Origin: an uncultured Gammaproteobacteria bacterium
GTDB lineage: Bacteria > Patescibacteriota > Patescibacteriia > UBA9934
Assembly (NCBI GenBank): GCA_964344415.1
Contig: CAYFMS010000001.1
Coordinates: forward strand, 317,315-381,314
Length of the DNA: 64,000 nt
Direction of reading: 5' to 3'
Shown here piece by piece: positions 11,487 to 57,025 of the stretch. Made by a program: the position numbers and the translations under genes. Within the stretch, counting starts at the first letter, position 1. Each line of letters begins with the position of its first letter. Below the pieces are notes generated by a model. That model saw only the letters and a list, made by a program, of their open reading frames with translations. It did no database searches and was not told where the DNA came from.

Positions 11487-11563
11487 GGGCTGGTAGTTCA
11501 ATTGGTTAGAGCACCGCCCTGTCACGGCGGAAGTTGCGGGTTCGAGTCCCGTCCAGCCCGCCA
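11487..11563 (+). tRNA. tRNA-Asp (anticodon GTC) with encoded CCA
   Basis: Acceptor GGGCTGG/CCAGCCC, anticodon loop CTGTCAC, T-arm GGGTTCGAGTCCC. Confidence 0.85.
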
Positions 11564-15477: not shown

Positions 15478-16260
15478 TCAGCCGAAGAGTACGTCAGCTT
15501 CCATGTGTGCATTTTCCCAGTTGATGGCGCGCGCGATTGATGCGCAAGCCTTGACTGCTTTGGAAAAGCGCAGGAAGCTATCGACTTCTGGCTCGCCGAA
15601 GTCGACGGCTCCAGCGAGTACGTAGCCAGGCAATTGCCCGATGCTGGGTGCCATCAAGTGACTCCCGAGCTCGGCCACGGTGTCACTGTCGAATTGATTT
15701 CCGACGCTCTGTCGAAGCCTGTAGTACGGGCTTGCCAGAAAATGGTCCAGGAACTCATCCGGTAGGGTGACTCCTCCGCAACAGTGTTCGAACACCATCG
15801 CGATGCCGAAGGTCGTCTTGAGCAGGGTATTGAGCTTCTTCAGCCCACCCGCTCGGAGCGGAATGCGCTCACCGAAGTGATGCATCAGCTCGGTCTCTGG
15901 CGACTTCACGCGCATGATGTGACCATCCTGCAAGCGTGTGAGTACCGAGAAGGTATTCACACTGACCGGGGGGCCATTCCAGAGCCGCTTCGGGAGAGCT
16001 GTGTAACTCTCCTCGATCTGCCGATGCACGATCTCCACGATGGTGACGATCTCGATCAGGCGTGGTGCATTGAAGCACTGCGCGATCTTTTGGATCTGCC
16101 TCGCGGTCAGATGCGGGTAGAGCTCATGGAGCACGTTCGCATCTTCTTGGTGGTACGGTCCGTACTGGGTACGAACCCAAACACCGTTTAGGGTCTTCAT
16201 TGCCGGATTGCTTGGCTTGACCGCCTCCATCAGGAGAGGGTGGTGGGCGTATTGCTGCAT
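15478..16260 (-). CDS. Hypothetical protein (GC-rich, about 58 %)
   Basis: 260-aa ORF, no family recognised. Distinct composition from the adjacent ParA-like gene. Confidence 0.45.
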   Translation of the reverse strand: MQQYAHHPLLMEAVKPSNPAMKTLNGVWVRTQYGPYHQEDANVLHELYPHLTARQIQKIAQCFNAPRLIEIVTIVEIVHRQIEESYTALPKRLWNGPPVSVNTFSVLTRLQDGHIMRVKSPETELMHHFGERIPLRAGGLKKLNTLLKTTFGIAMVFEHCCGGVTLPDEFLDHFLASPYYRLRQSVGNQFDSDTVAELGSHLMAPSIGQLPGYVLAGAVDFGEPEVDSFLRFSKAVKACASIARAINWENAHMEADVLFG

Positions 16261-16847: not shown

Positions 16848-17690
16848 CTATTCGATGCGCCGAGCCCCGGGGCAGTCGTCGGTGGCATCGATGGTCTGTT
16901 GACTCATCATGCCTCCGAAGCAGCTGTCTGCCTGATCGTGACTGGTCACGCTGCCGACGACGGAGAGCAGATGAACTGCACCCTCGCCGTCACGGCAGTG
17001 GACGAGATCGCCCTCGTCCGACCACTGTCGGCACCCGGTCCAACTGAGCGTGGTATCGAGTTCGGCCGCCAGGGCTTCCGCGGACACCTTCCCGGTGGGC
17101 ATGGTCATGCCGACAATGCCGGCAAGTACCGCCAGGATCACCGCTGCTGCGATGCCGACTGGAACCCACCAGGGCGGCGTTTCGGTCACGGTGACGTCGC
17201 CGTGCACCTCCGCATCGGGCAGGGGTGCTTCCGGCTCATTCTCCTCCTCCAGTTCTTCCGGGGGAGGGGGCAGGTCGTTGCCATCCGGGTCGACGGCTTC
17301 ATTTGCAGGCTCTTCGCCTGCATTCTCGTTGCCGTTTTCGAGATCATTGTCCGCAGCAGCCGGCTCTTCGTCGACTTGCTCATCGACCTCGTGCTGGTCG
17401 ACGATGGCCTGATTGGCCGCCGCCTCGGCCTCGAGTCGCTCGCGATTATTTTGATCGGTGAGCAGCTCGCTGATCGTACCGATCAGATTGTCGTTGACGA
17501 CACGTTGCCAATTCGGACCGACGACAACATCGTCGCTATCGGGCCCGGGAACGGTCACGCCACCGTCATTGTCGACGGCAGCGAGTGCCTCATCGGCGTA
17601 CAGGTGGACTTCCACTTCACCGTCGGTGACGGTGTAGGTGTTCATGTTCTGCCGGATTTCTTCCGGCAAGGCACGGACTTCTGCACTCAT
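16848..17690 (-). CDS. Acidic membrane protein, hypothetical (GC-rich island)
   Basis: A very Asp/Glu-rich cytoplasmic part, one TM (WWVPVGIAAAVILAVLAGIVGM) and a Cys-containing extracellular tail. Confidence 0.5.
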   Translation of the reverse strand: MSAEVRALPEEIRQNMNTYTVTDGEVEVHLYADEALAAVDNDGGVTVPGPDSDDVVVGPNWQRVVNDNLIGTISELLTDQNNRERLEAEAAANQAIVDQHEVDEQVDEEPAAADNDLENGNENAGEEPANEAVDPDGNDLPPPPEELEEENEPEAPLPDAEVHGDVTVTETPPWWVPVGIAAAVILAVLAGIVGMTMPTGKVSAEALAAELDTTLSWTGCRQWSDEGDLVHCRDGEGAVHLLSVVGSVTSHDQADSCFGGMMSQQTIDATDDCPGARRIE

Positions 17691-19839: not shown

Positions 19840-20220
19840 ATGGTGGACCTGGGGAGAATTGAACTCCCGTCTGGTCAGTGCTCGACCAAGAATGTTTTAC
19901 AAGTATATCTTACCTATATACATCTACCGATAAAGGCAAGAGAAAGACGATAGATGTTTCCGCGCAAACCTTTGACATTCACTCGCGGGGCATGAATGAC
20001 GCATCCTGCTATATATAACACCCAGATCGCTTTTGCGCAGGATCAAAAGCTAGGATGGCACTGCACAGTGTTAGGCAGTTGCGAATGCAGGTAGATTCAT
20101 TCGAATCAACCCACGTGAAGAGTTGTTTGCATGTATCTTCTTGTATGTGTTTTTACTGAGAACATACGGCTCAGACTTGGTTCTTGGAAGGTGCTGCTGC
20201 CATCGATTCCTGGCAGGCCC
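19840..20220 (-). ncRNA. ssrA: tmRNA (ssrA)
   Basis: 5' GGGCCUG pairs with 3' CAGGUCC-A-CCA and carries the tRNA-Ala G3·U70 wobble. T-arm is GGGAGUUCAAUUCUCCC. 5' region GGGGCCUGCCAGGAAUCGAUGG resembles the E. coli GGGGCUGAUUCUGGAUUCGACGGG. Lies directly downstream of smpB. Candidate tag ORF is GCA AAC AAC... TAA, giving ANNSSRGLIRMNLPAFATA. Confidence 0.75.
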
Positions 20221-22982: not shown

Positions 22983-24056
22983 ATGACCAGAAAACTTTTT
23001 TACGCCATTCTTATTCCAATTCTCGTAAGCGTTGCGGTGAGTATTGTCGCATCTGTTTATACGAATCAGGCGCTTGAGCGTTATTTAACGGGTCTCGACA
23101 CAGAATCTCAATTTAGAGATCAGACGGAAACAGTGACGCGTCCTTTGCCAGGGTCCTATGAAGAATCACTGAGCCAGATTGATACATTGATGACTGAATC
23201 TGTCGGCGTAATTCGCAGTACATCTATTTCACGTCAAGATGCGCTTATTCGGTCTGATGCGGATGGTGATCCGGGGGTTGTGATTACGAATGATGGATGG
23301 ATGCTATTCTCAAGTGAGTATACGCAGGGAATTGTTGGCGATGTTTTTGCATATGAAGTATGGATTGGTCAAAATGCATATTCAATTGAACAAGTGGTGA
23401 GTGATGAAATTTCAGGTCTTTCATTTGTAAAAGTGAATGCATCCGGTCTTGATCCCGTTTCTTTTGGAGATACAGTTTCAGCGACGGGCGGGGAATTATT
23501 ATTTGGTGCATCGCCAGTTCACGGTATTTCTCTTTCGGCGATTATTAATGCTCGTGAATTTTCTGGCGGTATTTCTCATGCAGATTACGATGTAAATTGG
23601 TTATGGGCTGTCGAGGAAATGCCTATTGGGTATCCAGTCTTTAATTCAGGAGCTCAGCTTGTCGGATTTGTTGATTCGAATGATCATGTTATCCCGCTTC
23701 TGAATGTGGAGAATCAAATTCGATCTTTCATTAGGCAGGGGAATATTGATCGCGTTGGTATGGGGGCACATATAGCCGAGGCACAATTTATCTTGAATAT
23801 TGATAGGGATGTGTACCCAGTTTCAGGCGCGCTTGTTCAGAATGTGATTATTGATTCTCCGGCATGGCAGGCAGGATTGCGTTCGGGGGATATGATTCTC
23901 TCCATTGATGGTTTGACGGTGACGGCTGAAGATACACTTGCACTTTTGCTTGGTCGTTATGAATCTGGTGATTCTATTCAAGTTGAATATATGCGTGAAG
24001 GTGAACGAAATGATGTGAAACTTGAATTGGCTTCGAGGGCCAGTTTGGGGTATTGA
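22983..24056 (+). CDS. Membrane-anchored trypsin-like (HtrA-type) domain plus PDZ domain protein. The Ser-protease motif is not clearly conserved.
   Basis: C-terminal PDZ GALVQNVIIDSPAWQAGLRSGDMILSIDG. The upstream region resembles the S1C fold but has FNSGAQL in place of GDSGGP. Confidence 0.6.
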   Translation: MTRKLFYAILIPILVSVAVSIVASVYTNQALERYLTGLDTESQFRDQTETVTRPLPGSYEESLSQIDTLMTESVGVIRSTSISRQDALIRSDADGDPGVVITNDGWMLFSSEYTQGIVGDVFAYEVWIGQNAYSIEQVVSDEISGLSFVKVNASGLDPVSFGDTVSATGGELLFGASPVHGISLSAIINAREFSGGISHADYDVNWLWAVEEMPIGYPVFNSGAQLVGFVDSNDHVIPLLNVENQIRSFIRQGNIDRVGMGAHIAEAQFILNIDRDVYPVSGALVQNVIIDSPAWQAGLRSGDMILSIDGLTVTAEDTLALLLGRYESGDSIQVEYMREGERNDVKLELASRASLGY

Positions 24057-24094
24057 CAGGGCTATTAATATCTGATAATGTCGCTCCAGATGCC

Positions 24095-24180
24095 CTTTCG
24101 GGTATGTCGTACGAAGCTATTGCAGCGCCTCCTCCTCGCTACAATGTGCGGAATATGACATACCCGAAAGGGCGTTTTTT
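24095..24180 (+). terminator. Long inverted repeat plus T9 run after the PDZ-protein gene
   Basis: gccctttcgggtatgtc ... gacatacccgaaagggc followed by ttttttttt. Confidence 0.55.
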
Positions 24181-24480
24181 TTTGCCGCTTGTGAGCTTGC
24201 GCTCTTGCATCTCCATGCTCCGCTCCTCGACAACGTACCTTTCAGTACGTCTTACTTCGGTGCTCGCATGTCAAAGCAATAGCATCAAGCTCACTTCGCG
24301 ACCCCATTTGAAATCCTGAGCCTGTCGAAGGATCTCTCAAATTGCGATGAGAATCTCTTCAATCTCCCAAATCTCTTCTATATCCTTTTGCACTTCTCTA
24401 TGTGCTATTTTCTACTAACTACTTACTTCGTAGCCGTCAATCCGTATATCCATACCATCTGTACATTCGTAATTATTTAC
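24175..24480. repeat. Modular intergenic repeat element, copy B
   Basis: Modules present are ttttttt-gccgcttgtgag, caacgtacctttcagtacg, gcgaccccatttgaaatcc, aatctcttcaatctcccaaatctcttctat and ccgtatatcc. Confidence 0.7.
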
Positions 24481-24519
24481 ACTTTTCGCTAATATTAGCC
24501 ATATTTCGCACCCAAGGAC

Positions 24520-24553
24520 TTGACAAATTGCCTATTTTTTGGTATAAATGTTA
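24520..24553 (+). promoter_or_regulatory. Near-consensus sigma70-type promoter
   Basis: TTGACA, 17 nt, TATAAA. Followed by an approximately 215-nt GC-rich, hairpin-rich 5' leader before the ATG at 24772. Confidence 0.55.
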
Positions 24554-24771
24554 ACCTTTCGGGCTGTAGCGGTCTGGCGTCCGGGAAACACCCCTCCTTG
24601 TTTTCCTGTCGATGTCGGACCACTAGAGAATGAAAGGAAGAGTAGAGCATTCGCCGTATGTGAGAGGGTATACGGCGAGTGCGCTGCGGCTGCAACGTTT
24701 AGGCCTTGTGGCCCTCGCATTCAACACTTTCACAAGATTCCCTGCGAGTCAGCGGGGTAAAGGAGACAGCG

Positions 24772-25875
24772 ATGTTCAAGAGCATCGTTTTTCACGCCAT
24801 GATGGCGTTGTTCGTTTGCGTGGCTCCGGTCGCGCAGGCGCAGGATCCGATTGGCCAGCAGGTCGGCGCGCTCGATGAGCGTGTCGAAGAGCTCGGCCGT
24901 GTGGTCGCTGATCGTGGTGAGAAGATCGCCACGATCGAGCGAGAGATCGCACGCATCGAGTCTGTCGGTGAATACAGCGAGAGCAATGCGTCTCGCATCG
25001 ACGAGTTGCAGCAGCAGCTCGATTCGATGAAGCCGACCGATCGTCAGAAAGCCGTCTATGCCCAGTGGGTCGAGATGGCCAAGCGCGTCGAAGAGCTCGG
25101 TATGACGTCCACGGAATTCGTGGATCGTGTCATGACCGTCACCGAGATGTCTGCGAGTCAGGAGGTGAAGATCACCGACCTGATGACCGGCCTCGCGGAC
25201 CTCGAAGAGAGGATCACGAAAGTCGAGCGTCGCGTCGGAGTGGTCGAAACGGATGTCGCTACGCTGACGGGAGCCGTGTACGGAACCGAAGAGTCCACTG
25301 GACTCATCGAGGATGTGCGCGACAACATGTCGGCGATCGACGATTTGTCGACTCGCGGATTCTGTCTGGACTTCAGTCTCGGCGGGTTCGCGGGCGGCGG
25401 CCCGTTTGGTCAGGCGGCCCAGGCGGTGTTTGCACCGCTGCAATTCCGGGGCGTTCGCGCCGGACTGCAGTTGGGCGCCGGTATCGGATACTGCACGGAC
25501 AAGTTTCGTGTGGGGTTCGAAGGAGGATTCATCTTCGATATTCCCGATCACTCGATTGGTGGATACGGTCAGGTGAGTGGGCTCTGGCGTGTCAGTGACT
25601 CCATGTTCTCGATCGGGCCGACCGGCAGGTTCGAATACCTGGAGCGTCGATACCGACATGGTCTGAAGGATGGGCAGGACGTCATCGTCCAGCTCGGGCC
25701 AAGGGTTCGTGTCGACTTCCTGCGCAAGCAGGATGGGGTCGACTTGGCGCTGAACATCGATGCCCTCATCGGCTGGCAAGGTACCAGCGTCGGACATTCC
25801 GGCGGCGGTACGGCCGGACGAGTGACTGGCGGGGCTGTTCTCGGTTTCACCGTTGGGTGGACCGACAGGCGCTGA
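24772..25875 (+). CDS. Secreted coiled-coil protein with a Gly-rich beta C-terminal domain (GC-rich island)
   Basis: AGGAG RBS, signal peptide MFKSIVFHAMMALFVCVAPVAQA, and E/R-rich heptad region. Confidence 0.6.
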   Translation: MFKSIVFHAMMALFVCVAPVAQAQDPIGQQVGALDERVEELGRVVADRGEKIATIEREIARIESVGEYSESNASRIDELQQQLDSMKPTDRQKAVYAQWVEMAKRVEELGMTSTEFVDRVMTVTEMSASQEVKITDLMTGLADLEERITKVERRVGVVETDVATLTGAVYGTEESTGLIEDVRDNMSAIDDLSTRGFCLDFSLGGFAGGGPFGQAAQAVFAPLQFRGVRAGLQLGAGIGYCTDKFRVGFEGGFIFDIPDHSIGGYGQVSGLWRVSDSMFSIGPTGRFEYLERRYRHGLKDGQDVIVQLGPRVRVDFLRKQDGVDLALNIDALIGWQGTSVGHSGGGTAGRVTGGAVLGFTVGWTDRR

Positions 25876-26063
25876 CTCCGAACTGGGGCGACCGCGATAC
25901 GCATAGCGTATTCGCGGTCGCCCTGACCTATTACTCAGAATGTACACAGATTGTAATTCAAGAATGAATTTCAGCCTGAGTACATGCTGCAAGGCTGTAC
26001 GAGAACCTTACAATTTTGTCCCATTCCGGGACATTCAACCCCCGGAATGGGGAAGGAGACAAC

Positions 26064-27584
26064 ATGAAGAACTTGTTTTTCGTCCTTCTCACGGTTTTTG
26101 CCGTGAGTGGCTGCGCCGAATGGGCGCCGCTCGAGGACATTCGATTCACTGATCGTGGTGATTCGGATACGGATACCGATGCGGATTCGGATGCAGACAC
26201 GGACACGGATACTGACGCAGACTCCGATACGGACACCGACACCGATACCGACGCAGACAGCGATACGGACACGGATACGGATACCGATGCGGATTCGGAT
26301 GCAGACACGGACACGGATACTGACGCAGACTCCGATACGGACACCGACACCGATACCGACGCAGACAGCGATACGGACACGGATACGGATACCGATGCGG
26401 ATTCGGATGCAGACACGGACACGGATACTGACGCAGACTCCGATACGGATACCGACACCGATACCGATGTGTCTCCTGACGCAGATGGCGACGGGTGGAC
26501 TGTCGATGCAGGTGACTGCAACGATAACCCCGTCTTCGGTTACTGGTACAATCCTGATCAGGAAGAGAGCTGTGGCGATGCCCAGGACTACAACTGTGAT
26601 GGGCACGACGATCCGCTTGCCGGGTGTGTCGAATGCTACTGGGATTCGGATGGTGACGGATACGGATCCTCCACCTCGTACGAGATGGAGGAATGTGATG
26701 GTCACTACTACGTGACTGTCGACGGAGATTGTGAGATCTTCGATGATAATTCCTATCCGGGTGCTGACGAAGACTGTGATGGCATCGACAATGACTGCGA
26801 TGGTGACATCGACGAAGGTTGCCTGATTTCGCCACCCGACAATGACAACGACGGTTACGATGTGTACAACGATTGTGACGACACCGACCCCTACCGGAAT
26901 CCTGGTGAGGACGAGGTATACGACATTCGTGACAACGACTGCGACGGAGTTCAGGACAATGTCCCCAACCAGGGGCATCGTGCTCTCTCCCGCTGGTACA
27001 AGATTCACGGCTACCAGAACCTCGACATCGACGGTGACGGTACTACGGGTCTGTACGAGGACATCGAGCATCGCTTCTCGGCAACTTCGCCGGGCAGTGG
27101 ATGGTACCAGGATGCCACCGAGCTCCTGACGTACCCGCTCGACATCTGCTCGAGCGGGTACGGTCCTTCGGACACTTGTATCGTCCGCAGCAATGGCGAG
27201 GTCGAGCTCTGGGGCGGGTACGTTCTCGTGCCACTCTACGAGTGCTACCGCGTCGACACCACCGGACTCCACACCACGGAGTACCACCCGCAGAACAGTG
27301 CGGGCTACATGGCGGCATCGAGTTGTGCATTCTCGCCAGTCGGTCTGGTTGTTCCCACGGGGACGAGTACCTCAATCGATCAGCAGGATTTGCTTCCGTA
27401 CTATCTTCATGCGTCGGCGCCGTATTACGGTGTCAGTGAGGTCGAGGGTGCTTCCGGCTACAATGCTGGCGACATCATGTACTCGGACCTCTGGGATGAA
27501 GGAGACGGAACGGGTCCGGGTGGATCCTACACGTACCACCAGACGGCCTGGTTCGCACTCAATCCGGACGATACTACCTACTGA
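26064..27584 (+). CDS. Lipoprotein with a (D-T/A/S)n acidic tandem-repeat region and MopE-type Cys-rich putative metal-binding motifs (GC-rich island)
   Basis: GGAAGGAG RBS and lipobox-like FAVSGC. About 110 aa of [10 protein letters not shown] repeats. DGDGYGS...CDDTDP...[22 protein letters not shown] matches the Cu-binding_MopE-type motif pattern. Confidence 0.7.
26170..26490 (+). repeat. Near-perfect 108-bp tandem repeat, about 3 copies, inside the CDS, encoding the DTD repeats
   Basis: gataccgatgcggattcggatgcagacacggacacggatactgacgcagactcc... recurs with a 108-nt period. Confidence 0.8.
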
Positions 27585-27589
27585 TCTCC

Positions 27590-27672
27590 TCAACGCCCGC
27601 CGGCTATTACAACTGCCGGCGGGCGACGAAAGGACCAACTCTCAAACGGAGAGCCCTGGTCCTTTTTTCTTT
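27590..27672 (+). terminator. Tandem GC hairpins plus T-run after the MopE-like gene
   Basis: cgcccgccggc...gccggcgggcg, then ggaccaactctc-aaac-ggagagccctggtcc followed by tttttt. Confidence 0.6.
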
Positions 27673-27889
27673 TCCATATTTTAATTTATGCTTCATGAAA
27701 ACCCATGATTCAGACGGACTTAAAATGCAAAAATATGAGATTGGGGGTTGACGGGAAGGAGGAAATCAGCTAATATTGCGCCATCGCAAATGCCCGAAAG
27801 GGCCCATAATAAAAATCAGGTTTGACGCGATCATGAAGTAACTCTCCCTTCGGGGCCCTTCATGCCAAACCGTCGTTAAAAGAGAAAAT

Positions 27890-28750
27890 ATGCCAAATAT
27901 TCCAAGTATTGAGGAATTACTCAAAGCCGGTGTTCATTTTGGACATCGCACAAGTCGCTGGCATCCAAAAATGGCTGAATATATTTTTGGAGCACGTCAG
28001 GGAGTTCATATTATTGACGTTGAAAAAACGCATGACATTTTGGAAAATGTTCTAGAAGAAATCAAGATGCTTATCGCAGCCGGTAAGGAAATCTGGTTTA
28101 TCGGAACAAAACAGCAAAATCAGTCAATTATTGAGAAATATGCGATTGAAGCAAAAGTGCCTTTCGTGAATCGACGTTGGCTAGGTGGAACATTCACAAA
28201 CTTTAAAGAGATTCAGAAGCTTATCAATGAATATCTTGATTTGCGCGACAAGCGTGAAAAGGGTGAGCTGAAGAAATATACAAAGCTTGAACAGCTTCAA
28301 TTCGACCGAAAAATCTCTGAGCTTGAAAATAAGATCGGTGGTATTTCAACAGCTGCAAAATTGCCAGATGCAATCTTTGTTGTGGACGTGCGAGCAGATA
28401 AGACAGCTATCGTAGAAGCAAGAAAGCAGGGGATTCGAATCTACGCACTTTGTGATACGAATGTGAATCCGGACCTTGTTGATACCGTCATTCCTGCAAA
28501 TGATGATTCTATTGCATCAACATCATTACTTACAAGACTTGTTGCCGACGCTGTTGTCGAGGGTCGTTCCGCGAAAGTAGCTCCAAAGCCGACTGCAAAA
28601 AAGGAAGTAAAAGAAGAGAAGGCAAATGATGTTGACTTGTCTGAGGATTCAAAAGCTTCTGTTGAAGAGCTTGATTTGGAACTCAATGAAAAGCTTGCTA
28701 AAGAAAAGGAAGAGGCTGAAAAGAGTGCTGCGCCAAAGCGAAAGAAATAA
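27890..28750 (+). CDS. rpsB: 30S ribosomal protein S2 with a Lys/Glu-rich C-terminal extension
   Basis: LLKAGVHFGHRTSRWHPKM. Confidence 0.95.
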   Translation: MPNIPSIEELLKAGVHFGHRTSRWHPKMAEYIFGARQGVHIIDVEKTHDILENVLEEIKMLIAAGKEIWFIGTKQQNQSIIEKYAIEAKVPFVNRRWLGGTFTNFKEIQKLINEYLDLRDKREKGELKKYTKLEQLQFDRKISELENKIGGISTAAKLPDAIFVVDVRADKTAIVEARKQGIRIYALCDTNVNPDLVDTVIPANDDSIASTSLLTRLVADAVVEGRSAKVAPKPTAKKEVKEEKANDVDLSEDSKASVEELDLELNEKLAKEKEEAEKSAAPKRKK

Positions 28751-47451: not shown

Positions 47452-50400
47452 ATGAAAAGAAAGATCGTATCTCTACTGGGGGTTTTTGGTTTTCTCATCC
47501 TTGTTGGGTCAGCTTATCATTTTGCATCTGCATATGTGGAGGGTGATTATACGAAGGATACGGTAGCGAATAATGTGGCTGAGGGCGAAACAAATGTGAA
47601 CTTTGCCTATCTTGAATTGCCGGATCCAACAACAGACACCATTGTCACAAATGGTGCGACGGCGGTTGTGGCAGCGACAGATGCTCTTTCAGCTTTTCCG
47701 GCAACGCATCAGTTTTTTGATAAATCCGACAACAATACATACGCTGATGGAAATGGAGTGATCAGTTCTGCAGATGTCATTATCGGTGCAGGGGATACCG
47801 TCTTAACGACTGCAACAGGGGTTCTGGAGGCATTTAGTGGCACATTTGCAGAAACGGGTAGCACAACTGGAATTGGATGGATTGACAATATAACTGACGA
47901 CAATATTTTGGAAGCAACAGAAGATATTGTTTCCATTGTTGCTAATTTGGCACAGGTCTCAAATGGTTTACTTGCGCGTACATTTGAGACGGATATCTAT
48001 TTCTTGGCAGATTCAAGCTCTACGACAGAATATAATGCTAGTGATGATAATGCGGTTGTTGAAGATGCGGATGCTGACGGGTATTTAACTGCCGGAGACA
48101 ATGTCTTAATTGCTGGAAAAGGGTCAGTTTACAATTTTGGTTCTTCTGGTGATGATGTTTGTTTCGACGGATCCGTTGTAAATGATGGGGAATATGATGA
48201 AGGTGAGGTGATTTGGTGGGATAATTCTGGTGGAAATGACTGTTCTTCATTCTTGTCTGGTACAGACATTATTTTGGTAGGATCGTCGGCTCCAACGGGG
48301 ACAAGTACGGAATTCTTTGGGAATGAAGATGAGGTGGGGTATTTGGACCAGAACGGAACAGGTGCTGATGGTTTTACTTGTTCAAGGGCGGGTGATTGCG
48401 AAGCTCTCGTCTATTCGGGTGCGGATGGAGTTGACTTGTCTGCGGATGCAACCCTTCCTGTGACGGCGGAATTCTTTGATTCTTCTTCAGAGGCGACGGA
48501 TGGAATTCGAACAACAGGAGATGCTTGGGATGAGTCTGGAAATGCTTTACAGACACATGTTCAGTTTTCGAGCGTAACAACAAATGGTGAGGTGGAATAT
48601 GTCTATCTTGATGCAGATACGAATACAGATTTTACTTCCACGGATCCAATCATGCAGGTAATTGATAAGGGCGCTGATAATATCGCTAGCGGTCAAGATT
48701 TTCGATCGTTTAAAGATAATGATTATCGTCTTTTCGACCATGATGATGACGGTGTATATGACGATGGAACGGATGGATTGGTTGGTTCTGATGATAATGA
48801 CCTTGATCCATCAGACACGCTTGTGAATACACAAGCGGCGCCGACGCCGGCTATGCTCGAAGCTTTCCCTTCTACGCATCGATTCCATGACCATGATTCA
48901 AGCGGAAGCTATGCAGATGGTGACGATGTCATTAATGATAGTGACGAGTCTACTTATTACAATGCGGATGATTTGCTTTCACTTGGTATTACTGTAACGG
49001 GCTCTACAACGGCCACGAATGGTGAAATTGATGACATTTATGTGTATGAGCGTGCTGGCGGGGCTTGTGCTGGTTCAGGTACGGACACGCTTCTTGGTTC
49101 TGTTTCTGGTGACGTTTTAGATGAAAATATTGCTATTACGCGCGCACCATTTACGGCGGCAGATGATATTACACTTTGCTTCTATCTGGATGCTGCAGCT
49201 GACTTTACGGCTGGAAGAACATTTCAAGCACAAACTGGTGCAACGAATCCAATAACGTATAGTTCTGGGGCAGATTCGGGAAGTATGGGATTGAAAACGG
49301 GGTCCGATGCTTTAACAGTCTTTTATGAAGATTTGACAGCGACAGTTTCCTCCTCTGATTTGAGTCCAAGTGCGACGGCTTCGTATACAATCTCGTATAC
49401 TGTTACGAATAATGTGCCTGCCAGTTCAAATATTATTAATACATTCCCTGCAGGATTTGATATTAGTGGCATGTCAATTGCCTGCACAGACGACGGCGGA
49501 GCGATTACAGGCTCATCAACAATACTTGGTCAAATCGCAGCTGTGGCAAATATTGGTGCTCAAGTCGATGCTGGATCTGCTGTTTCTTGTGTGGTTTCGG
49601 ATGTTGTAAATCCTGCAGCAGAGGGTGCTTCTGCTGCATTTGTAATAGGTCCTGCCTATGCTGGAACGAGTATTGCGGAGCGTGATGATGATGAAACTGT
49701 AACAATTGCTACGCCCTCTGCAGGGGGAGGATCTACTGAAGCGAGCAAACCAAAGACATGGGATGTGTCTCTCTTGTCGCCAAATGGTGGCGAGCAGGTC
49801 GCTGCTGGTGAAGCGATTGAAATCATGTGGCAATATCTCGGCACGGGAGCTATCAATTATGTGAACCTTGCTTATTCAATTGATGAGGGGGAGACATGGA
49901 CAGATATTGTGAAAAATACCGCAAATGACATGAAATATAGCTGGATAACTCCAATGGTGAATACGGCCAAGGCTCTTGTGCGTGTCGCTACAACTGATTT
50001 GGCACATGAGTTATTCACCGACGAATCCGATGCTGTGTTTTCAATTGGTGATATATCATCCGGCGGTGAGAGTACGGATGATGTCGAAGAATCTTCTGAC
50101 CCAGGTATCATCTGTAATGGAGATGAATTCCCGGCTGGCATTGAAATTGGTGATCATATACTTGGTGTAACGCCAGATGGAGTTCAGTATCCGGCAGTAT
50201 TTTATGTCGGTGAAGACTGTCGCAGGCATCCATATTTGAATGAGCCGCATTACTTCACTTACGGTTTCACGGATTTTTCAAATGTTGAAATATATTCAAC
50301 GCTTGATCTTGAGCGTATTTCCGTTGGAAAATCTATGCCAATCAAACCCGGAACGGTTCTAGTCAAAACGACGGATAATCCGACGGTCTACTATATTCAA

Positions 50401-50610
50401 GATACGGGCGATCCGCTGAATCCGGAACTTTACAGCATTCCAAGTGAAGAAGTCGCTATTGAATATTTTGGCGCTGATTGGGCGGAGAGAATCATCGACG
50501 TTGCCCCGCATTACTTAACAATTTTTGAAGATAATGGCCGTCCAGTAACCGACTTGCAGCCGTCCCTTGTTTCTAATATGTACCAAGCGGATGATTTGCG
50601 AGCTCGATAA
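47452..50610 (+). CDS. Large (1052 aa) secreted Thr/Asp/Gly-rich surface protein, hypothetical adhesin or S-layer-like
   Basis: Signal peptide MKRKIVSLLGVFGFLILVGSAYHFASA and low-complexity beta-rich repeats. Confidence 0.65.
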   Translation: MKRKIVSLLGVFGFLILVGSAYHFASAYVEGDYTKDTVANNVAEGETNVNFAYLELPDPTTDTIVTNGATAVVAATDALSAFPATHQFFDKSDNNTYADGNGVISSADVIIGAGDTVLTTATGVLEAFSGTFAETGSTTGIGWIDNITDDNILEATEDIVSIVANLAQVSNGLLARTFETDIYFLADSSSTTEYNASDDNAVVEDADADGYLTAGDNVLIAGKGSVYNFGSSGDDVCFDGSVVNDGEYDEGEVIWWDNSGGNDCSSFLSGTDIILVGSSAPTGTSTEFFGNEDEVGYLDQNGTGADGFTCSRAGDCEALVYSGADGVDLSADATLPVTAEFFDSSSEATDGIRTTGDAWDESGNALQTHVQFSSVTTNGEVEYVYLDADTNTDFTSTDPIMQVIDKGADNIASGQDFRSFKDNDYRLFDHDDDGVYDDGTDGLVGSDDNDLDPSDTLVNTQAAPTPAMLEAFPSTHRFHDHDSSGSYADGDDVINDSDESTYYNADDLLSLGITVTGSTTATNGEIDDIYVYERAGGACAGSGTDTLLGSVSGDVLDENIAITRAPFTAADDITLCFYLDAAADFTAGRTFQAQTGATNPITYSSGADSGSMGLKTGSDALTVFYEDLTATVSSSDLSPSATASYTISYTVTNNVPASSNIINTFPAGFDISGMSIACTDDGGAITGSSTILGQIAAVANIGAQVDAGSAVSCVVSDVVNPAAEGASAAFVIGPAYAGTSIAERDDDETVTIATPSAGGGSTEASKPKTWDVSLLSPNGGEQVAAGEAIEIMWQYLGTGAINYVNLAYSIDEGETWTDIVKNTANDMKYSWITPMVNTAKALVRVATTDLAHELFTDESDAVFSIGDISSGGESTDDVEESSDPGIICNGDEFPAGIEIGDHILGVTPDGVQYPAVFYVGEDCRRHPYLNEPHYFTYGFTDFSNVEIYSTLDLERISVGKSMPIKPGTVLVKTTDNPTVYYIQDTGDPLNPELYSIPSEEVAIEYFGADWAERIIDVAPHYLTIFEDNGRPVTDLQPSLVSNMYQADDLRAR

Positions 50611-51824: not shown

Positions 51825-52889
51825 CTACTCGATCGGTCTCACGAGTCGATGGCCCATAGGGCCGTACCTGTTGCCAATCGGCGTATTGTTGCGTCGGACA
51901 ATGGCCGAGACCTCGTCCGTATCGCCATCCCAGGCTCCGCCACAATCGCGCTTCGCGATCATGTTGCTGTCGGTGTCAGGGGCGATGAAGACGACCTCGT
52001 CGGGTCCGCTTGGATCGACTCGATCCATGTTCTCGTATTGGTACGGATCGTACCCACGAGACCCGTCCCAGACCCATTCCCATTGATTGCCTGTCATGTC
52101 GTGCAGGCCAAGGGCATTGGGCTCGAGCAGTCCGACTTTCTGAGGCCCATCTGGACTGTTTTCGGCGGTCCAGGCGACCTCGGAGAGATCGTTGCTCCCG
52201 GCGAATCGCGTATTCTGCCCAGCATGGGCAGCATAGCGCCACTCGGCCTCTGTCGGAAGGCGATAGCCATTGGCGGACCGATTCCACTCGACGGAAGCGA
52301 ATACCTCCGCGGAGGCATCTTGCCAGTGGGCGTTCACATCCCAGGGTTCATCCTCGTAGAGGCTCTCGATGATGTATGCTCGCTCGAGCCCGTCCCGTTC
52401 GGACATGGCATTCGCGAGAAGTACACCATCCAACCATGACATGGACATCATGGGACAGTCGTCCTCGACGCAGGGCGTATTGAACTTGCTCGAGACGGAA
52501 TTAGTGATTTCCTCACCAAAGACATCTTGGAACAAGCCACGCGTGACCTCGTAGCGCATCATCTCGAATGACTTTGAAATGGTGATGCAAGCCGGCGGGC
52601 CTTCGTCGAGGTCGCAGAACCCGTCGTCTCGTTCCGGCGTGCAACCGATGACGAAACTTCCGGCTGGGACATGAACCCAGTCTGACGGATTGTCGTGATT
52701 TACGCCCATCGTGGTGACGGCGCAATTCGCGACTTCATCCATTTCGACATCGGTCACATCATGGACGGAATCCATAATGTCTCCAGTCGAAAACTCTGCT
52801 TCCGTGATGGACTCTTCCACCACGGAATCCTCTGGCAAGCAGCCCATCAGGGCGACTCCCCAAAAACTCAACAAATAAAAGAACTTCAT
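51825..52889 (-). CDS. Formylglycine-generating-enzyme (FGE/SUMF1) family protein, secreted or lipoprotein (GC-rich island)
   Basis: Signal MKFFYLLSFWGVALMGC. FGE-sulfatase motifs HDMTGNQWEWVWD and RGGAW-like DCGGAWDGD. Confidence 0.7.
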   Translation of the reverse strand: MKFFYLLSFWGVALMGCLPEDSVVEESITEAEFSTGDIMDSVHDVTDVEMDEVANCAVTTMGVNHDNPSDWVHVPAGSFVIGCTPERDDGFCDLDEGPPACITISKSFEMMRYEVTRGLFQDVFGEEITNSVSSKFNTPCVEDDCPMMSMSWLDGVLLANAMSERDGLERAYIIESLYEDEPWDVNAHWQDASAEVFASVEWNRSANGYRLPTEAEWRYAAHAGQNTRFAGSNDLSEVAWTAENSPDGPQKVGLLEPNALGLHDMTGNQWEWVWDGSRGYDPYQYENMDRVDPSGPDEVVFIAPDTDSNMIAKRDCGGAWDGDTDEVSAIVRRNNTPIGNRYGPMGHRLVRPIE

Positions 52890-52962
52890 GTTCCCTCCTT
52901 GCCTGTTTAATACCATGTTTTGCTATAAATGTCAATCCAAAAACTCACGGATCTCACGCCAT

Positions 52963-56892: not shown

Positions 56893-57025
56893 TTGAATAT
56901 ATCAAGAGATAGTTAGGGAACGAGCCCATTGATCTGTCCGCAACCTGCCATTGGTAAGGTGCGAATTCTCGCCCAAAGGGAAAGATAAATTTTAACCACT
57001 CTTTTCCCGGAGTGGATTTTCATTT
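56893..57025 (+). promoter_or_regulatory. SAM-I (S-box) riboswitch with terminator expression platform upstream of metK
   Basis: aUAUCAAGAG..AGGGA..GAGCCCaUUGA..CGCAACC..GGUGCGAAUUCuC..GGAAAGAUaAA matches the S-box consensus blocks. This is followed by ccactc-ttttcccg-gagtgg then attttcattt (terminator). Confidence 0.7.

Follow-up and report, generated by a model that had tools for sequence, protein, structure and literature searches.

The locus analyzed here raises the question of what kind of protein is specified by a GC-rich, repeat-bearing gene, g2, and whether that gene is native to the low-GC DNA around it. Small-genome episymbiotic bacteria rely on contact with partner cells, and we know of few surface proteins of such bacteria that are understood. 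The host of g2 appears to be a small-genome bacterium, probably CPR/Patescibacteria-like. The record of L004, a contig from the organism with the closest known cassette, is labelled Gammaproteobacteria. Throughout, "the window" denotes the whole stretch of DNA that was analyzed, 64,000 nucleotides in length, and positions are counted from its first letter.

The g2 open reading frame (26064-27584, plus strand), complete from its ATG to a stop codon, specifies 506 amino acids, and the gene calls of a 768-kb metagenomic contig include the same protein. g2 is a real gene, and its product is a very acidic, cysteine-rich lipoprotein. Specifically, its signal peptide, as read from the sequence, conforms to the bacterial lipobox pattern [LVI][ASTVI][GAS]C. 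The N-terminus is matched in the related locus L002 (MKNLMFTLLTAFAVSGC), where the VSGC lipobox is kept, and an earlier note's description of g2 as a lipoprotein holds. In the related proteins P0123-P0127 and P0129, a cysteine likewise lies in a lipobox-like context behind a hydrophobic N-terminus. The mature g2 protein contains 135 acidic and 10 basic residues, and 16 cysteines lie C-terminal to its stalk. The acidic excess, the lipobox, and the 16 cysteines together fit an extracytoplasmic, disulfide-bonded protein. The notion is that g2 would be exported and then lipid-anchored via Cys17, which probably places it on the cell surface. Two minus-strand reading frames, 24730-25992 and 25971-27287, are not genes but by-products of GC-rich, repetitive sequence; we reject them because the plus-strand frames are under purifying selection and have homologs. 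The features of the locus are collected in the table.

Table. Features of the g1-g2 locus, in window coordinates.
Feature	Position	Strand	Basis
Long hairpin: 20-bp outer stem plus inner stem, 9-nt loop CCUCCUCCU, then T-run	24092..24185	+	Inverted repeat, fold
Sigma-70-type promoter: TTGACA, 17 nt, TGGTATAAA (extended -10)	24520..24548	+	Read from sequence
Structured 5' leader of g1	24555..24771	+	Conservation, fold z-scores
g1, secreted protein of 367 aa	24772..25875	+	ORF, translation, AF2 model
GC-rich hairpin 3' of g1, terminator-like, without T-run	25885..25923	+	Read from sequence
Hairpin CCCAUUCCGGG/CCCGGAAUGGG (26020-26051) directly 5' of g2 Shine-Dalgarno AAGGAG (26053-26058)	26020..26059	+	
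Lipoprotein signal peptide of g2	26064..26114	+	Lipobox V-S-G-C, Cys17, read from sequence
Polyanionic Asp-Thr/Ser/Ala stalk (aa 32-137)	26157..26474	+	Tandem repeat and composition
Three PF11617-type Cys/Asp modules (aa 139-183, 194-253, 259-298)	26478..26957	+	Pfam, BLASTP
C-terminal beta-rich domain, undescribed family (aa 299-506), and stop codon	26958..27584	+	
Two terminator hairpins 3' of g2, 27594-27625 and 27632-27662 (second followed by T-run)	27594..27675	+	Read from sequence

On balance, we lean toward the view that g2 is a surface-displayed binding protein carried on an acidic stalk of variable length. Tandem Repeats Finder locates the repeat underlying the stalk at 26164-26467 (period 108, 2.8 copies, 99% matches, score 601, 36-nt sub-period). 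Units 1 and 2 are identical, and the partial third unit (88 nt) carries one mismatch. The earlier note had reported a perfect 108-bp repeat in three near-identical units encoding a poly-DTD spacer; repeat and spacer are both present, with 2.8 copies rather than three. The repeat encodes a tract of 102 residues, the composition over aa 32-137 being D52 T31 A11 S10, and this polyanionic Asp-Thr/Ser/Ala tract of roughly 100 residues would serve as an extended stalk. The same note's suggestion of a contingency locus is not supported: the 108-bp unit is 36 codons long and lies in-frame inside the open reading frame, which is never shifted, so a change in copy number alters the length of the stalk and does not switch g2 on or off. 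Unequal recombination or slippage could thereby lengthen or shorten the stalk in 36-residue steps while leaving the gene intact. Among relatives the acidic tract differs greatly in length, measuring about 15 aa in L002 but about 100 aa in P0125, and relatives carry tandem repeats of their own, such as one of 219 bp x 2.6 in L008.

Acidic repeats of this kind recall staphylococcal MSCRAMMs and certain large adhesins. Specifically, the Sdr/Clf MSCRAMM proteins and Bap/LapF, like g2, place a long Asp-X tract encoded by tandem repeats between an anchor and functional domains. In phage and plasmid DNA, the stalk has matches, of about 70% identity, only to the SD repeats of Sdr adhesins and to the repeat regions of Bap/LapF, and these searches returned nothing outside the low-complexity repeat. 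Sdr/Clf proteins are anchored by a C-terminal LPXTG, whereas g2 has an N-terminal lipobox, so the polarity is reversed; the g2 repeat is mainly Asp-Thr whereas theirs is Ser-Asp; and g2 lacks their A and B domains. The NCBIfam models ClfA, ClfB, SdrC, and SdrD score 46-54 bits against cut-offs of 999-2500, on the repeat region only, and the g2 sequence contains no LPXTG. g2 is accordingly not assigned to the SD-repeat MSCRAMM family.

g2 is the second gene of a two-gene cassette and is preceded by g1; upstream of g1 lie a promoter of consensus type and a structured leader that is conserved. The g1 protein comprises a signal peptide (cleavage ...AQA/QD, placed by eye), a coiled coil of about 170 aa, and a Gly-rich beta domain of about 170 aa. 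A single homolog, P0122 (42% identity), is recovered at the search threshold; no relative was found in JGI metagenome contigs, and comparison with Pfam, NCBIfam, PHROG, and PADLOC gave coiled-coil noise only. The beta domain, with a dN/dS ratio of 0.13, is under purifying selection; for the coiled coil the ratio is 0.53. AF2 modeled g1 poorly (pLDDT 44), placing helices at 1-191 and 8 long strands at 197-366, and the model is unfit for fold searches. In layout, g1 resembles trimeric autotransporters: its signal peptide is followed by a long N-terminal coiled coil, and its C-terminal Gly-rich domain is predicted to form long beta hairpins. It differs from them in the size of that domain (about 170 aa and 8 strands in the low-confidence model, versus a 4-strand anchor) and in its C-terminus, which is RR rather than an aromatic residue, and it has no sequence match to the autotransporter and OMP families of Pfam and NCBIfam. 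When g1 was compared by hhalign with the coiled-coil/beta proteins of L005, L006, L008, and L009, the coiled coil alone aligned; the likeness is one of layout and does not establish homology.

The cassette is one version of an envelope-protein module located 3' of AI-2E-transporter and PDZ-protein genes, an arrangement that recurs on at least two other contigs. Specifically, the order AI-2E, small ORF, 254-aa gene, PDZ, module is common to the window, L008, and the P0125 contig. L002 keeps the cassette itself, with the same signal peptide and MopE modules that are about 85% identical. Across seven loci including the window, the same kinds of genes occur, with the same contrast in GC content between coding sequences and spacers, and strong promoters and conserved leaders lie upstream of the module genes. 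In each version it is the coding sequences alone that greatly exceed the remaining genome in GC.

How, then, did GC-rich genes come to occupy this place? g1 (GC 0.609, GC3 0.729) and g2 (GC 0.569, GC3 0.655) depart from six neighboring housekeeping genes (GC 0.40-0.45, GC3 0.31-0.40) and from the window as a whole (GC 0.45). Spacers are lower, at 0.434 (24057-24554), 0.500 (25876-26063), and 0.462 (27585-27889). The figure of about 60% GC that the earlier note gave for the 24.5-27.6 kb segment is thus true of the two coding sequences only.

From that figure followed the most serious competing explanation, one we regard as unlikely: that 24.5-27.6 kb is a recent foreign block from a GC-rich, Myxococcota-like donor, with the lipoprotein a passenger that has kept the donor's composition. 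The deviation from the host is considerable, since GC3 reaches 0.73 and 0.66 in the two genes and codon usage is shifted throughout. Moreover, GC1, GC2, and GC3 fall on the equilibrium line of a genome of 57-61% GC, as expected of an unameliorated recent import; the regression coefficients are reportedly those of Lawrence and Ochman from 1997. A genome of 70% GC (L010) contains relatives of the C-terminal domain, and further GC-rich genes are scattered across the window, including 41732-43021 beside Cas1. The spacers within the module, however, are host-like (0.43-0.54 GC, against 0.66-0.73 in the truly GC-rich L010) and contain host-type extended -10 promoters. The same gene order surrounds the module in L008 and on the P0125 contig. 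Synonymous divergence between the window and L002 is saturated, yet both cassettes retain a GC3 of about 0.72, with no sign of amelioration, and in the four loci for which both values are known, a higher host GC3 goes with a higher island GC3. Signatures of mobility are wanting as well: no integrase, adjoining tRNA or tmRNA site, or convincing flanking direct repeat was found, and the module is not absent from relatives. The nearest tRNA (11487) and the tmRNA (19841-20220) do not adjoin the module, the sole flanking repeat is a 27-nt, 74% match, and phage and plasmid DNA offers no counterpart beyond the low-complexity stalk repeat. Simple recent transfer does not fit the module, because the GC excess is confined to coding sequences, L008 has the module in the same position, six further loci show this contrast between coding sequences and spacers, and synonymous sites are saturated without amelioration. 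The compositional half of the argument for horizontal acquisition, deviant GC3 and codon usage, stands; the host-like spacers, shared gene order, saturated dS, and lack of mobility signatures go against the rest. As for the gene at 41732-43021, GC-rich and adjoining Cas1, it has no Pfam match.

A broader and quite tentative proposal is that a small-genome clade keeps a conserved envelope module, composed of secreted coiled-coil/beta proteins and acidic-stalk lipoproteins, at a coding GC3 of 0.66-0.97 despite full synonymous turnover, with genome and spacers at host composition, and that the module's conserved hairpins constitute a possible new cis-regulatory element. If so, a force specific to coding sequences would be raising GC in one functional gene set, rather than simple import of foreign DNA. 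Candidate forces would be selection acting at synonymous sites or biased gene conversion linked to recombination between variable surface genes.

The noncoding part of the module is structured from its left edge onward, where the 24092..24185 hairpin is located. Its inverted repeat is 95% complementary, and its fold energy is -52.1 kcal/mol (z = -7.3). In L004 (757-846), the loop CCUCCUCCU is kept and stem changes preserve pairing, though the upstream gene differs; a related hairpin is present in L008. The hairpin probably serves to terminate the PDZ-protein gene upstream of it, or is possibly a small RNA. The promoter that follows is predicted to drive the leader and g1. L002 retains both its -35 and its -10 element, and promoters of the same type lie 5' of other module genes in L005, L006, L008, L009, and L011. 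A consensus promoter scan missed it, position 6 of its -10 hexamer being A.

The g1 leader folds into hairpins P1 (about 24564-24628, long, with loop CACCCCUCCUUG), P2 (about 24642-24686), and P3 (about 24687-24712), and a small hairpin directly precedes the g1 Shine-Dalgarno AAGGAG (24760-24765). It shares 62 consecutive identical nucleotides with L002, though identity between the encoded proteins is 42-45% and dS about 2.1. The folds reach z-scores of -4.9 and -6.0, and the consensus fold contains 62 pairs, 3 with compensatory changes, which is thin covariation support. Rfam gave no match to 23900-27950 at E<=1 and none to seven related loci at E<=0.1. Among the related loci, a covariance model of the leader (R1) recovered the window itself only. 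Scans for leader 24-mers found none in metagenome contigs or viral contigs and a single match in genome contigs, to L004, from the same organism as L002. As far as is known, the g1 leader occurs in two lineages only. Downstream, the 25885..25923 hairpin keeps its pairing in L002 with a different sequence, and the 26020-26051 hairpin is identical there save for a 1-nt loop deletion, in a g1-g2 spacer that is 86% identical overall. We speculate that the conserved long hairpins, whose loops mimic the anti-Shine-Dalgarno (CCUCCUCCU, CCCCUCCUU), may be a new cis-regulatory element for module genes.

The distal part of g2 is where a binding function is to be sought. Its C-terminal domain of about 207 aa belongs to a rare, undescribed family: an exhaustive search of 1.84 billion sequences yielded 13 representatives. 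In P0123-P0127 and P0129, the domain follows a lipoprotein anchor and an acidic tract, most of these proteins also having PF11617 modules. In GC-rich bacteria the domain is appended at the C-terminus to secreted cell-wall hydrolases of the CHAP/SLT kind. Specifically, it is preceded by CHAP and SLT in P0128 and by CHAP in P0131 and P0133 (the last at 24.5 bits, slightly under the 26-bit cut-off), and in P0134 it follows an N-terminal region that is phospholipase-C-like by eye only and has no Pfam match. The g2 copy is among the more divergent of the family, with LYEC for LSQC and an altered TLLL.ED segment, and fold comparison returned no informative structural neighbor. Judged by the domain architecture of the other proteins, the beta-rich domain is likely the ligand-binding end of g2.

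Somewhat more doubtful than recent transfer is a structural interpretation, under which the cassette would build not an adhesin but an envelope layer, in the form of fibrils or an S-layer-like coat. If the C-terminal domain were accordingly a signal for sorting or attachment, its place at the extreme C-terminus in 13 of 13 family members would be explained. Module genes consistently encode secreted coiled-coil proteins and lipoproteins behind strong promoters, and in L005, L008, and the P0125 contig the module is followed by glycosyltransferase and Wzy_C genes. No glycosyltransferase genes adjoin it in the window, however, and g2 is already lipid-anchored at its N-terminus. The domain, about 200 aa long and with conserved columns of His, Asp, Arg, and Tyr, also exceeds known C-terminal sorting domains in size and complexity. 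We continue to favor a binding protein displayed on a stalk.

Between stalk and distal domain lie the modules that gave rise to the idea of metal binding. The earlier note had recognized MopE-type motifs, and g2 indeed passes the Pfam model PF11617 at 41.3 bits (E 1.9e-10, gathering cut-off 27). Two stretches pass, the best being aa 270-298, and the last module alone scores 28.9 bits. Three Cys/Asp modules can be discerned by eye, each opening with a DxDxDG-like motif, in a stretch that holds 12 cysteines, and in BLASTP they align repeatedly to MopE-motif arrays in P0002. With other PF11617 surface proteins g2 shares the pattern D-x-D-G-D-G ... C-D-D-x-D-x-x-x-x-P-G-x-x-E-x-C-D-G-x-D-N-D-C-D-G. 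Most of those proteins are long motif arrays or fusions to lectin, T9SS, or other domains, whereas g2 has just three modules, which connect an acidic stalk with a C-terminal domain of another, undescribed family. A search with the motif identified 3112 proteins at E<=0.001 among 8000 candidates examined. By name, the sources include Myxococcota, Pseudomonadota, Bacteroidota (Chitinophagaceae, Chitinophagales, Aestuariivivens), and Patescibacteria, a wider range than the Myxococcota and methanotrophs to which the motif had been said mainly to belong. The modules would form three disulfide-rich units on the stalk, probably stabilized by Ca2+, whose binding is suggested by the DxDxDG-like pattern; Pfam TSP_3 does not match g2.

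Whether g2 is itself a metal-handling protein is another matter. It could in principle be a MopE-like copper scavenger, or a high-capacity buffer of Ca2+ or other cations acting through polyaspartate and the Cys/Asp modules, and we judge this improbable. PF11617, whose threshold is passed, is annotated as a putative metal-binding motif; g2 combines 135 acidic residues with several DxDxDG-like motifs and 16 cysteines; and calcium protects MopE* from proteolysis and stabilizes it (PMC3423442). MopE/CorA (PDB 2vov) and g2 are both secreted or surface proteins, and MopE/CorA has an N-terminal motif of about 30-45 residues like those of g2. The Cu(I) site of MopE*, however, consists of His132, His203, and kynurenine-130, an oxidized Trp130 (PMC3423442), and the Cu(I) ligands of MopE are located outside the PF11617-type motif (PMC3423442; PMC6189053). 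g2 bears no likeness to the copper-binding body of MopE*. Against the PDB, a profile including the motif matches MopE* (2vov) solely over residues 5-49 (E 0.0046), and the full g2 protein gives no 2vov match in phmmer at E<=1. Because PF11617 lies outside the MopE copper site, copper binding by g2 does not follow, and the label "copper-binding-like" is not supported. Moreover, the motif is present in thousands of unrelated multidomain surface proteins, any Ca2+ binding is more likely structural, and no metal transporter or regulator gene adjoins g2.

That the repeat or the GC-rich segment is an assembly artefact, a chimeric or mis-assembled insertion, is very improbable: the 304-bp near-perfect array is longer than typical short reads, and a Logan contig from the same run (L012) breaks 30 nt inside it, but that independent assembly reproduces 24274-26193 at 100% identity, the repeat leaves the reading frame open, and six other loci from other samples have the same design. 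The identity of L012 confirms the junction of host-like DNA and GC-rich coding sequence and does not extend to repeat copy number; because the array exceeds typical short reads, the value of 2.8 copies is not secure.

g2 is a candidate surface-display protein that combines a lipid anchor, a length-adjustable acidic stalk, cysteine-rich linker modules, and a new distal domain. The locus offers unannotated conserved RNA structures as candidate regulators. The module is also a clean test case for a gene set that holds its composition far from that of its genome, and this composition bears on how reliably GC deviation indicates horizontal transfer. The new domain family, finally, is one that GC-rich bacteria of predatory type attach to cell-wall-degrading enzymes.

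The cassette formed by g2, the gene under study, and its upstream partner g1 is one version of a module of envelope-protein genes, and both cassette and module are conserved across relatives. Specifically, similar gene runs exist in five related contigs (L005, L006, L008, L009, and L011, which encode P0123, P0124, P0126, P0127, and P0129, relatives of the g2 C-terminal domain) and on the contig of another relative, P0125; P0124 is also encoded on L007, a shorter contig. In the module, a secreted coiled-coil/Gly-rich protein is followed by small and large lipoproteins. Upstream, the order small ORF, 254/258-aa membrane protein, PDZ protein is the same in the window, L008, and the P0125 contig, and in L008, as in the window, an AI-2E transporter gene precedes it. 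Thus, the module is old and positionally conserved in a clade.

The earlier note proposed that the entire segment is GC-rich and horizontally acquired. The first proposal holds for the two coding sequences, g1 and g2 (GC 0.61 and 0.57, GC3 0.73 and 0.66; GC3 of six neighboring genes, 0.31-0.40), and fails for the spacers (24057-24554, 25876-26063, and 27585-27889), whose GC is just 0.43-0.50. At every locus for which DNA is available, module coding sequences have GC3 of 0.66-0.97. Module spacers, many containing consensus extended -10 promoters, have 0.43-0.54 GC, except 0.58 in L008 and 0.62 in L005, and for the host genes on the flanks GC3 is 0.31-0.51. In L010, a genuinely GC-rich locus, spacers reach 0.66-0.73 GC. 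Module GC3 equals or exceeds what equilibrium predicts from the total GC of the genes, with the regression coefficients reported by Lawrence and Ochman in 1997; this pattern is the opposite of the amelioration signature. Module GC3 also goes up with host GC3, a suggestive association across four loci. Concerning acquisition, the compositional deviation of the coding sequences speaks for it, while host-like spacers, conserved position, and lack of mobility signs speak against a single recent block transfer, which does not explain the module's GC pattern. We consider it unlikely that recent transfer is the whole story. As a mobile genomic island, the segment was rejected: searches at the module in the window turned up neither an integrase nor an adjacent tRNA nor any convincing flanking repeat. 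Among known phages and plasmids, only the low-complexity repeat was matched. We note that the window harbors three further coding sequences that are GC-rich against a genome GC3 of about 0.33: one for a 260-aa protein that no Pfam model matches (GC3 0.71), one for an acidic protein of 280 aa in which one apparent transmembrane segment was read by eye (GC3 0.71), and one for a lipoprotein bearing an FGE-sulfatase domain (GC3 0.68). Thus, the coding-restricted GC excess is not unique to the cassette.

Conservation of the cassette extends to its noncoding DNA. The g1 product comprises a signal peptide, a ~170-aa coiled coil, and a ~170-aa Gly-rich beta domain; its sole homolog at the search threshold is P0122 (42% identity) on contig L002. 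There, the P0122 gene is followed by a g2 homolog with the same signal peptide and MopE modules ~85% identical; in that homolog the acidic tract is short, the modules are far more numerous, and the C-terminus has diverged. Synonymous sites between g1 and the P0122 gene are saturated (dS ~2.1), and the beta domain has dN/dS of 0.13. Against that saturation, the conservation of parts of the noncoding DNA is striking: the two g1 leaders share an uninterrupted identical stretch of 62 nucleotides, and identity across the g1-g2 spacer is 86%. The leader, preceded by the promoter TTGACA-17-TGGTATAAA and lacking an Rfam match, folds into three hairpins (z-scores -4.9 and -6.0, three compensatory pairs), the first with loop CACCCCUCCUUG. 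A second long hairpin, at 24092-24173 (z = -7.3), has loop CCUCCUCCU and ends in a T-run. Both loops are complementary to the AAGGAG Shine-Dalgarno sites ahead of g1 and g2, possibly with functional relevance. The long hairpins of the window, L004 (from the same organism as L002), and L008 are near-perfect, with varying stems and a retained loop, and match nothing in Rfam. They might serve as conserved-loop terminators, or else represent a small regulatory RNA.

Nearby repeats were also observed. In the sister organism, the DNA preceding the g1 leader contains a direct duplication of a ~294-nt hairpin-rich block (348-nt period, 98% identity), within which a 34-nt GAAAGGTC... unit occurs five times; the L004 label, "uncultured Gammaproteobacteria," is possibly a binning label. 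In L005, ACACAGATTTT recurs in two spacers that precede lipoprotein genes. Together with the ACACAGATTGT of the window, this unit may represent an operator recognized by a common regulator. Elsewhere in the window, the 429-aa protein next to Cas1 could be a small effector.

Coordinates of features in the window and related loci
Feature	Sequence	Position	Strand	Remark
g1	window	24772-25875	+	367 aa
g2	window	26064-27584	+	506 aa
g2 repeat	window	26164-26467		108-bp unit, 2.8 copies as assembled
CCUCCUCCU-type hairpin	window	24092-24185		next to module
CCUCCUCCU-type hairpin	L004	757-846		stem changes keep pairing
CCUCCUCCU-type hairpin	L008	3404-3468	-	
CCUCCUCCU-type hairpin	L008	3681-3752	+	
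CCTCCTCC motif alone	L006	3898-3905		
Duplicated block	L004	1295-1936		= L002 1-650
ACACAGATTTT repeat	L005	1651-1692		11-12-nt unit, ~3.8x
ACACAGATTTT repeat	L005	3788-3830		11-12-nt unit, ~3.8x
ACACAGATTGT	window	25943-25953		single, g1-g2 spacer
P0126 repeat	L008	6187-6757		219-bp unit, 2.6 copies, 92% matches
GC-rich coding sequence	window	15478-16260	-	
GC-rich coding sequence	window	16848-17690	-	
GC-rich coding sequence	window	51825-52916	-	
CRISPR-Cas-like locus	window	41210-43799		compact
Cas1 gene	window	43095-43799	-	Pfam Cas_Cas1, E 3e-25
429-aa protein beside Cas1	window	41732-43021	-	no Pfam match; GC3 0.61, GC-rich for genome
Mini-array	window	41210-41392		three ~36-40-nt repeats, spacing 71-72 nt
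1052-aa ORF	window	47452-50610	+	host-like composition; no Pfam match at E<=0.001
tmRNA	window	19841-20220	-	beside smpB
SAM riboswitch	window	56896-56991	+	
tRNA-Asp	window	11487-11563	+	

The g2 product is a predicted lipoprotein whose N-terminus closes with a lipobox. The mature polypeptide contains 135 acidic residues against 10 basic ones, and all 16 cysteines lie C-terminal to an acidic tract (aa 32-137; D52 T31 A11 S10), a distribution that fits an exported, disulfide-bonded protein. No Pfam or NCBIfam model covers the last ~207 residues. Exhaustive phmmer searching of 1.84 billion representatives yielded 13 proteins with this C-terminal domain at E<=0.001, defining an undescribed and rare family; in 13/13 the domain is C-terminal, with one MopE-like module before it. 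Six relatives (P0123-P0127 and P0129) share the g2-like design of lipoprotein N-terminus, poly-Asp-Ser/Thr tract, and C-terminal domain, most with PF11617 modules. Others are enzyme fusions: in P0128, CHAP and SLT domains precede the domain, and P0131, from a 70% GC genome, carries CHAP. In P0133, CHAP scores 24.5 bits, slightly under the 26-bit cut-off, and in P0134 an N-terminal region without a Pfam match is phospholipase-C-like by eye only. Because the domain is elsewhere a noncatalytic C-terminal appendage of cell-wall hydrolases, it may, by analogy, bind a ligand on a cell envelope. That g2 instead has a structural envelope or sorting role seems to us quite unlikely.

PF11617, the "MopE-type" putative metal-binding motif that the earlier note predicted, scores 41.3 bits in g2 (Pfam cut-off 27), with three modules (aa 139-183, 194-253, and 259-298), placing g2 in a broad set of motif-bearing proteins. 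The suggestion that the motif is known mainly from Myxococcota and methanotrophs is not supported: it is widespread, with 3112/8000 scored candidates reaching E<=0.001 under names from several phyla. A D-x-D-x-D-G pattern is seen more typically at structural Ca2+ sites. Nor is the "copper-binding-like" description supported: a profile with the motif matches the MopE* structure (2vov) exclusively at residues 5-49 (E 0.0046), and the full g2 protein has no match to 2vov at E<=1. The Cu(I) ligands of MopE* are His132, His203, and kynurenine-130 (PMC3423442), outside the matched region. Homology to MopE/CorA was consequently rejected, and a metal-handling function is very unlikely.

The ORF itself is real, and the identical protein was called on a 768-kb metagenomic contig, among housekeeping genes (SmpB, IF3, L20, L35, S2, EF-Ts, GAPDH, PGK, and enolase). 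Tandem Repeats Finder confirmed the repeat encoding the acidic spacer (99% matches); units 1 and 2 are identical, and the third has 88 nt with one mismatch. A Logan assembly made independently from the same run matches 24274-26193 exactly, ending 30 nt inside the repeat, so the module junctions are not chimeric; an artefact has negligible probability. A contingency locus in the frame-shifting sense does not fit, because the repeat is exact and in-frame and would change in 36-residue steps. In P0126, a repeat of its own duplicates acidic tract plus Cys-rich module, and tandem amplification is thus recurrent in the gene family.

We lean modestly toward g2 being a surface lipoprotein with a variable-length acidic stalk, Ca2+-stabilized linkers, and a ligand-binding C-terminal domain. 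The gene lies in a strong promoter context; its protein would be lipid-anchored on the cell surface; the acidic tract would form an extended stalk whose length shifts by recombination within the repeat; and the Cys/Asp modules would be rigid linkers. Tract length varies widely among relatives, which carry their own tandem repeats. In its working, g2 may come closest to an adhesin whose acidic stalk is repeat-encoded, though its polarity is reversed and its distal domain is new. The tract's resemblance to Asp-X stalks of the Sdr/Clf and Bap/LapF adhesins holds only for DNA and composition. MSCRAMM membership was rejected, the likeness being confined to the stalk. By itself, the g2 lipoprotein is of modest interest. 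Worth pursuing are the conserved envelope module, for its lasting coding-only GC enrichment; the family of the C-terminal domain, which is undescribed; and the conserved leader, for its anti-Shine-Dalgarno-like loops.
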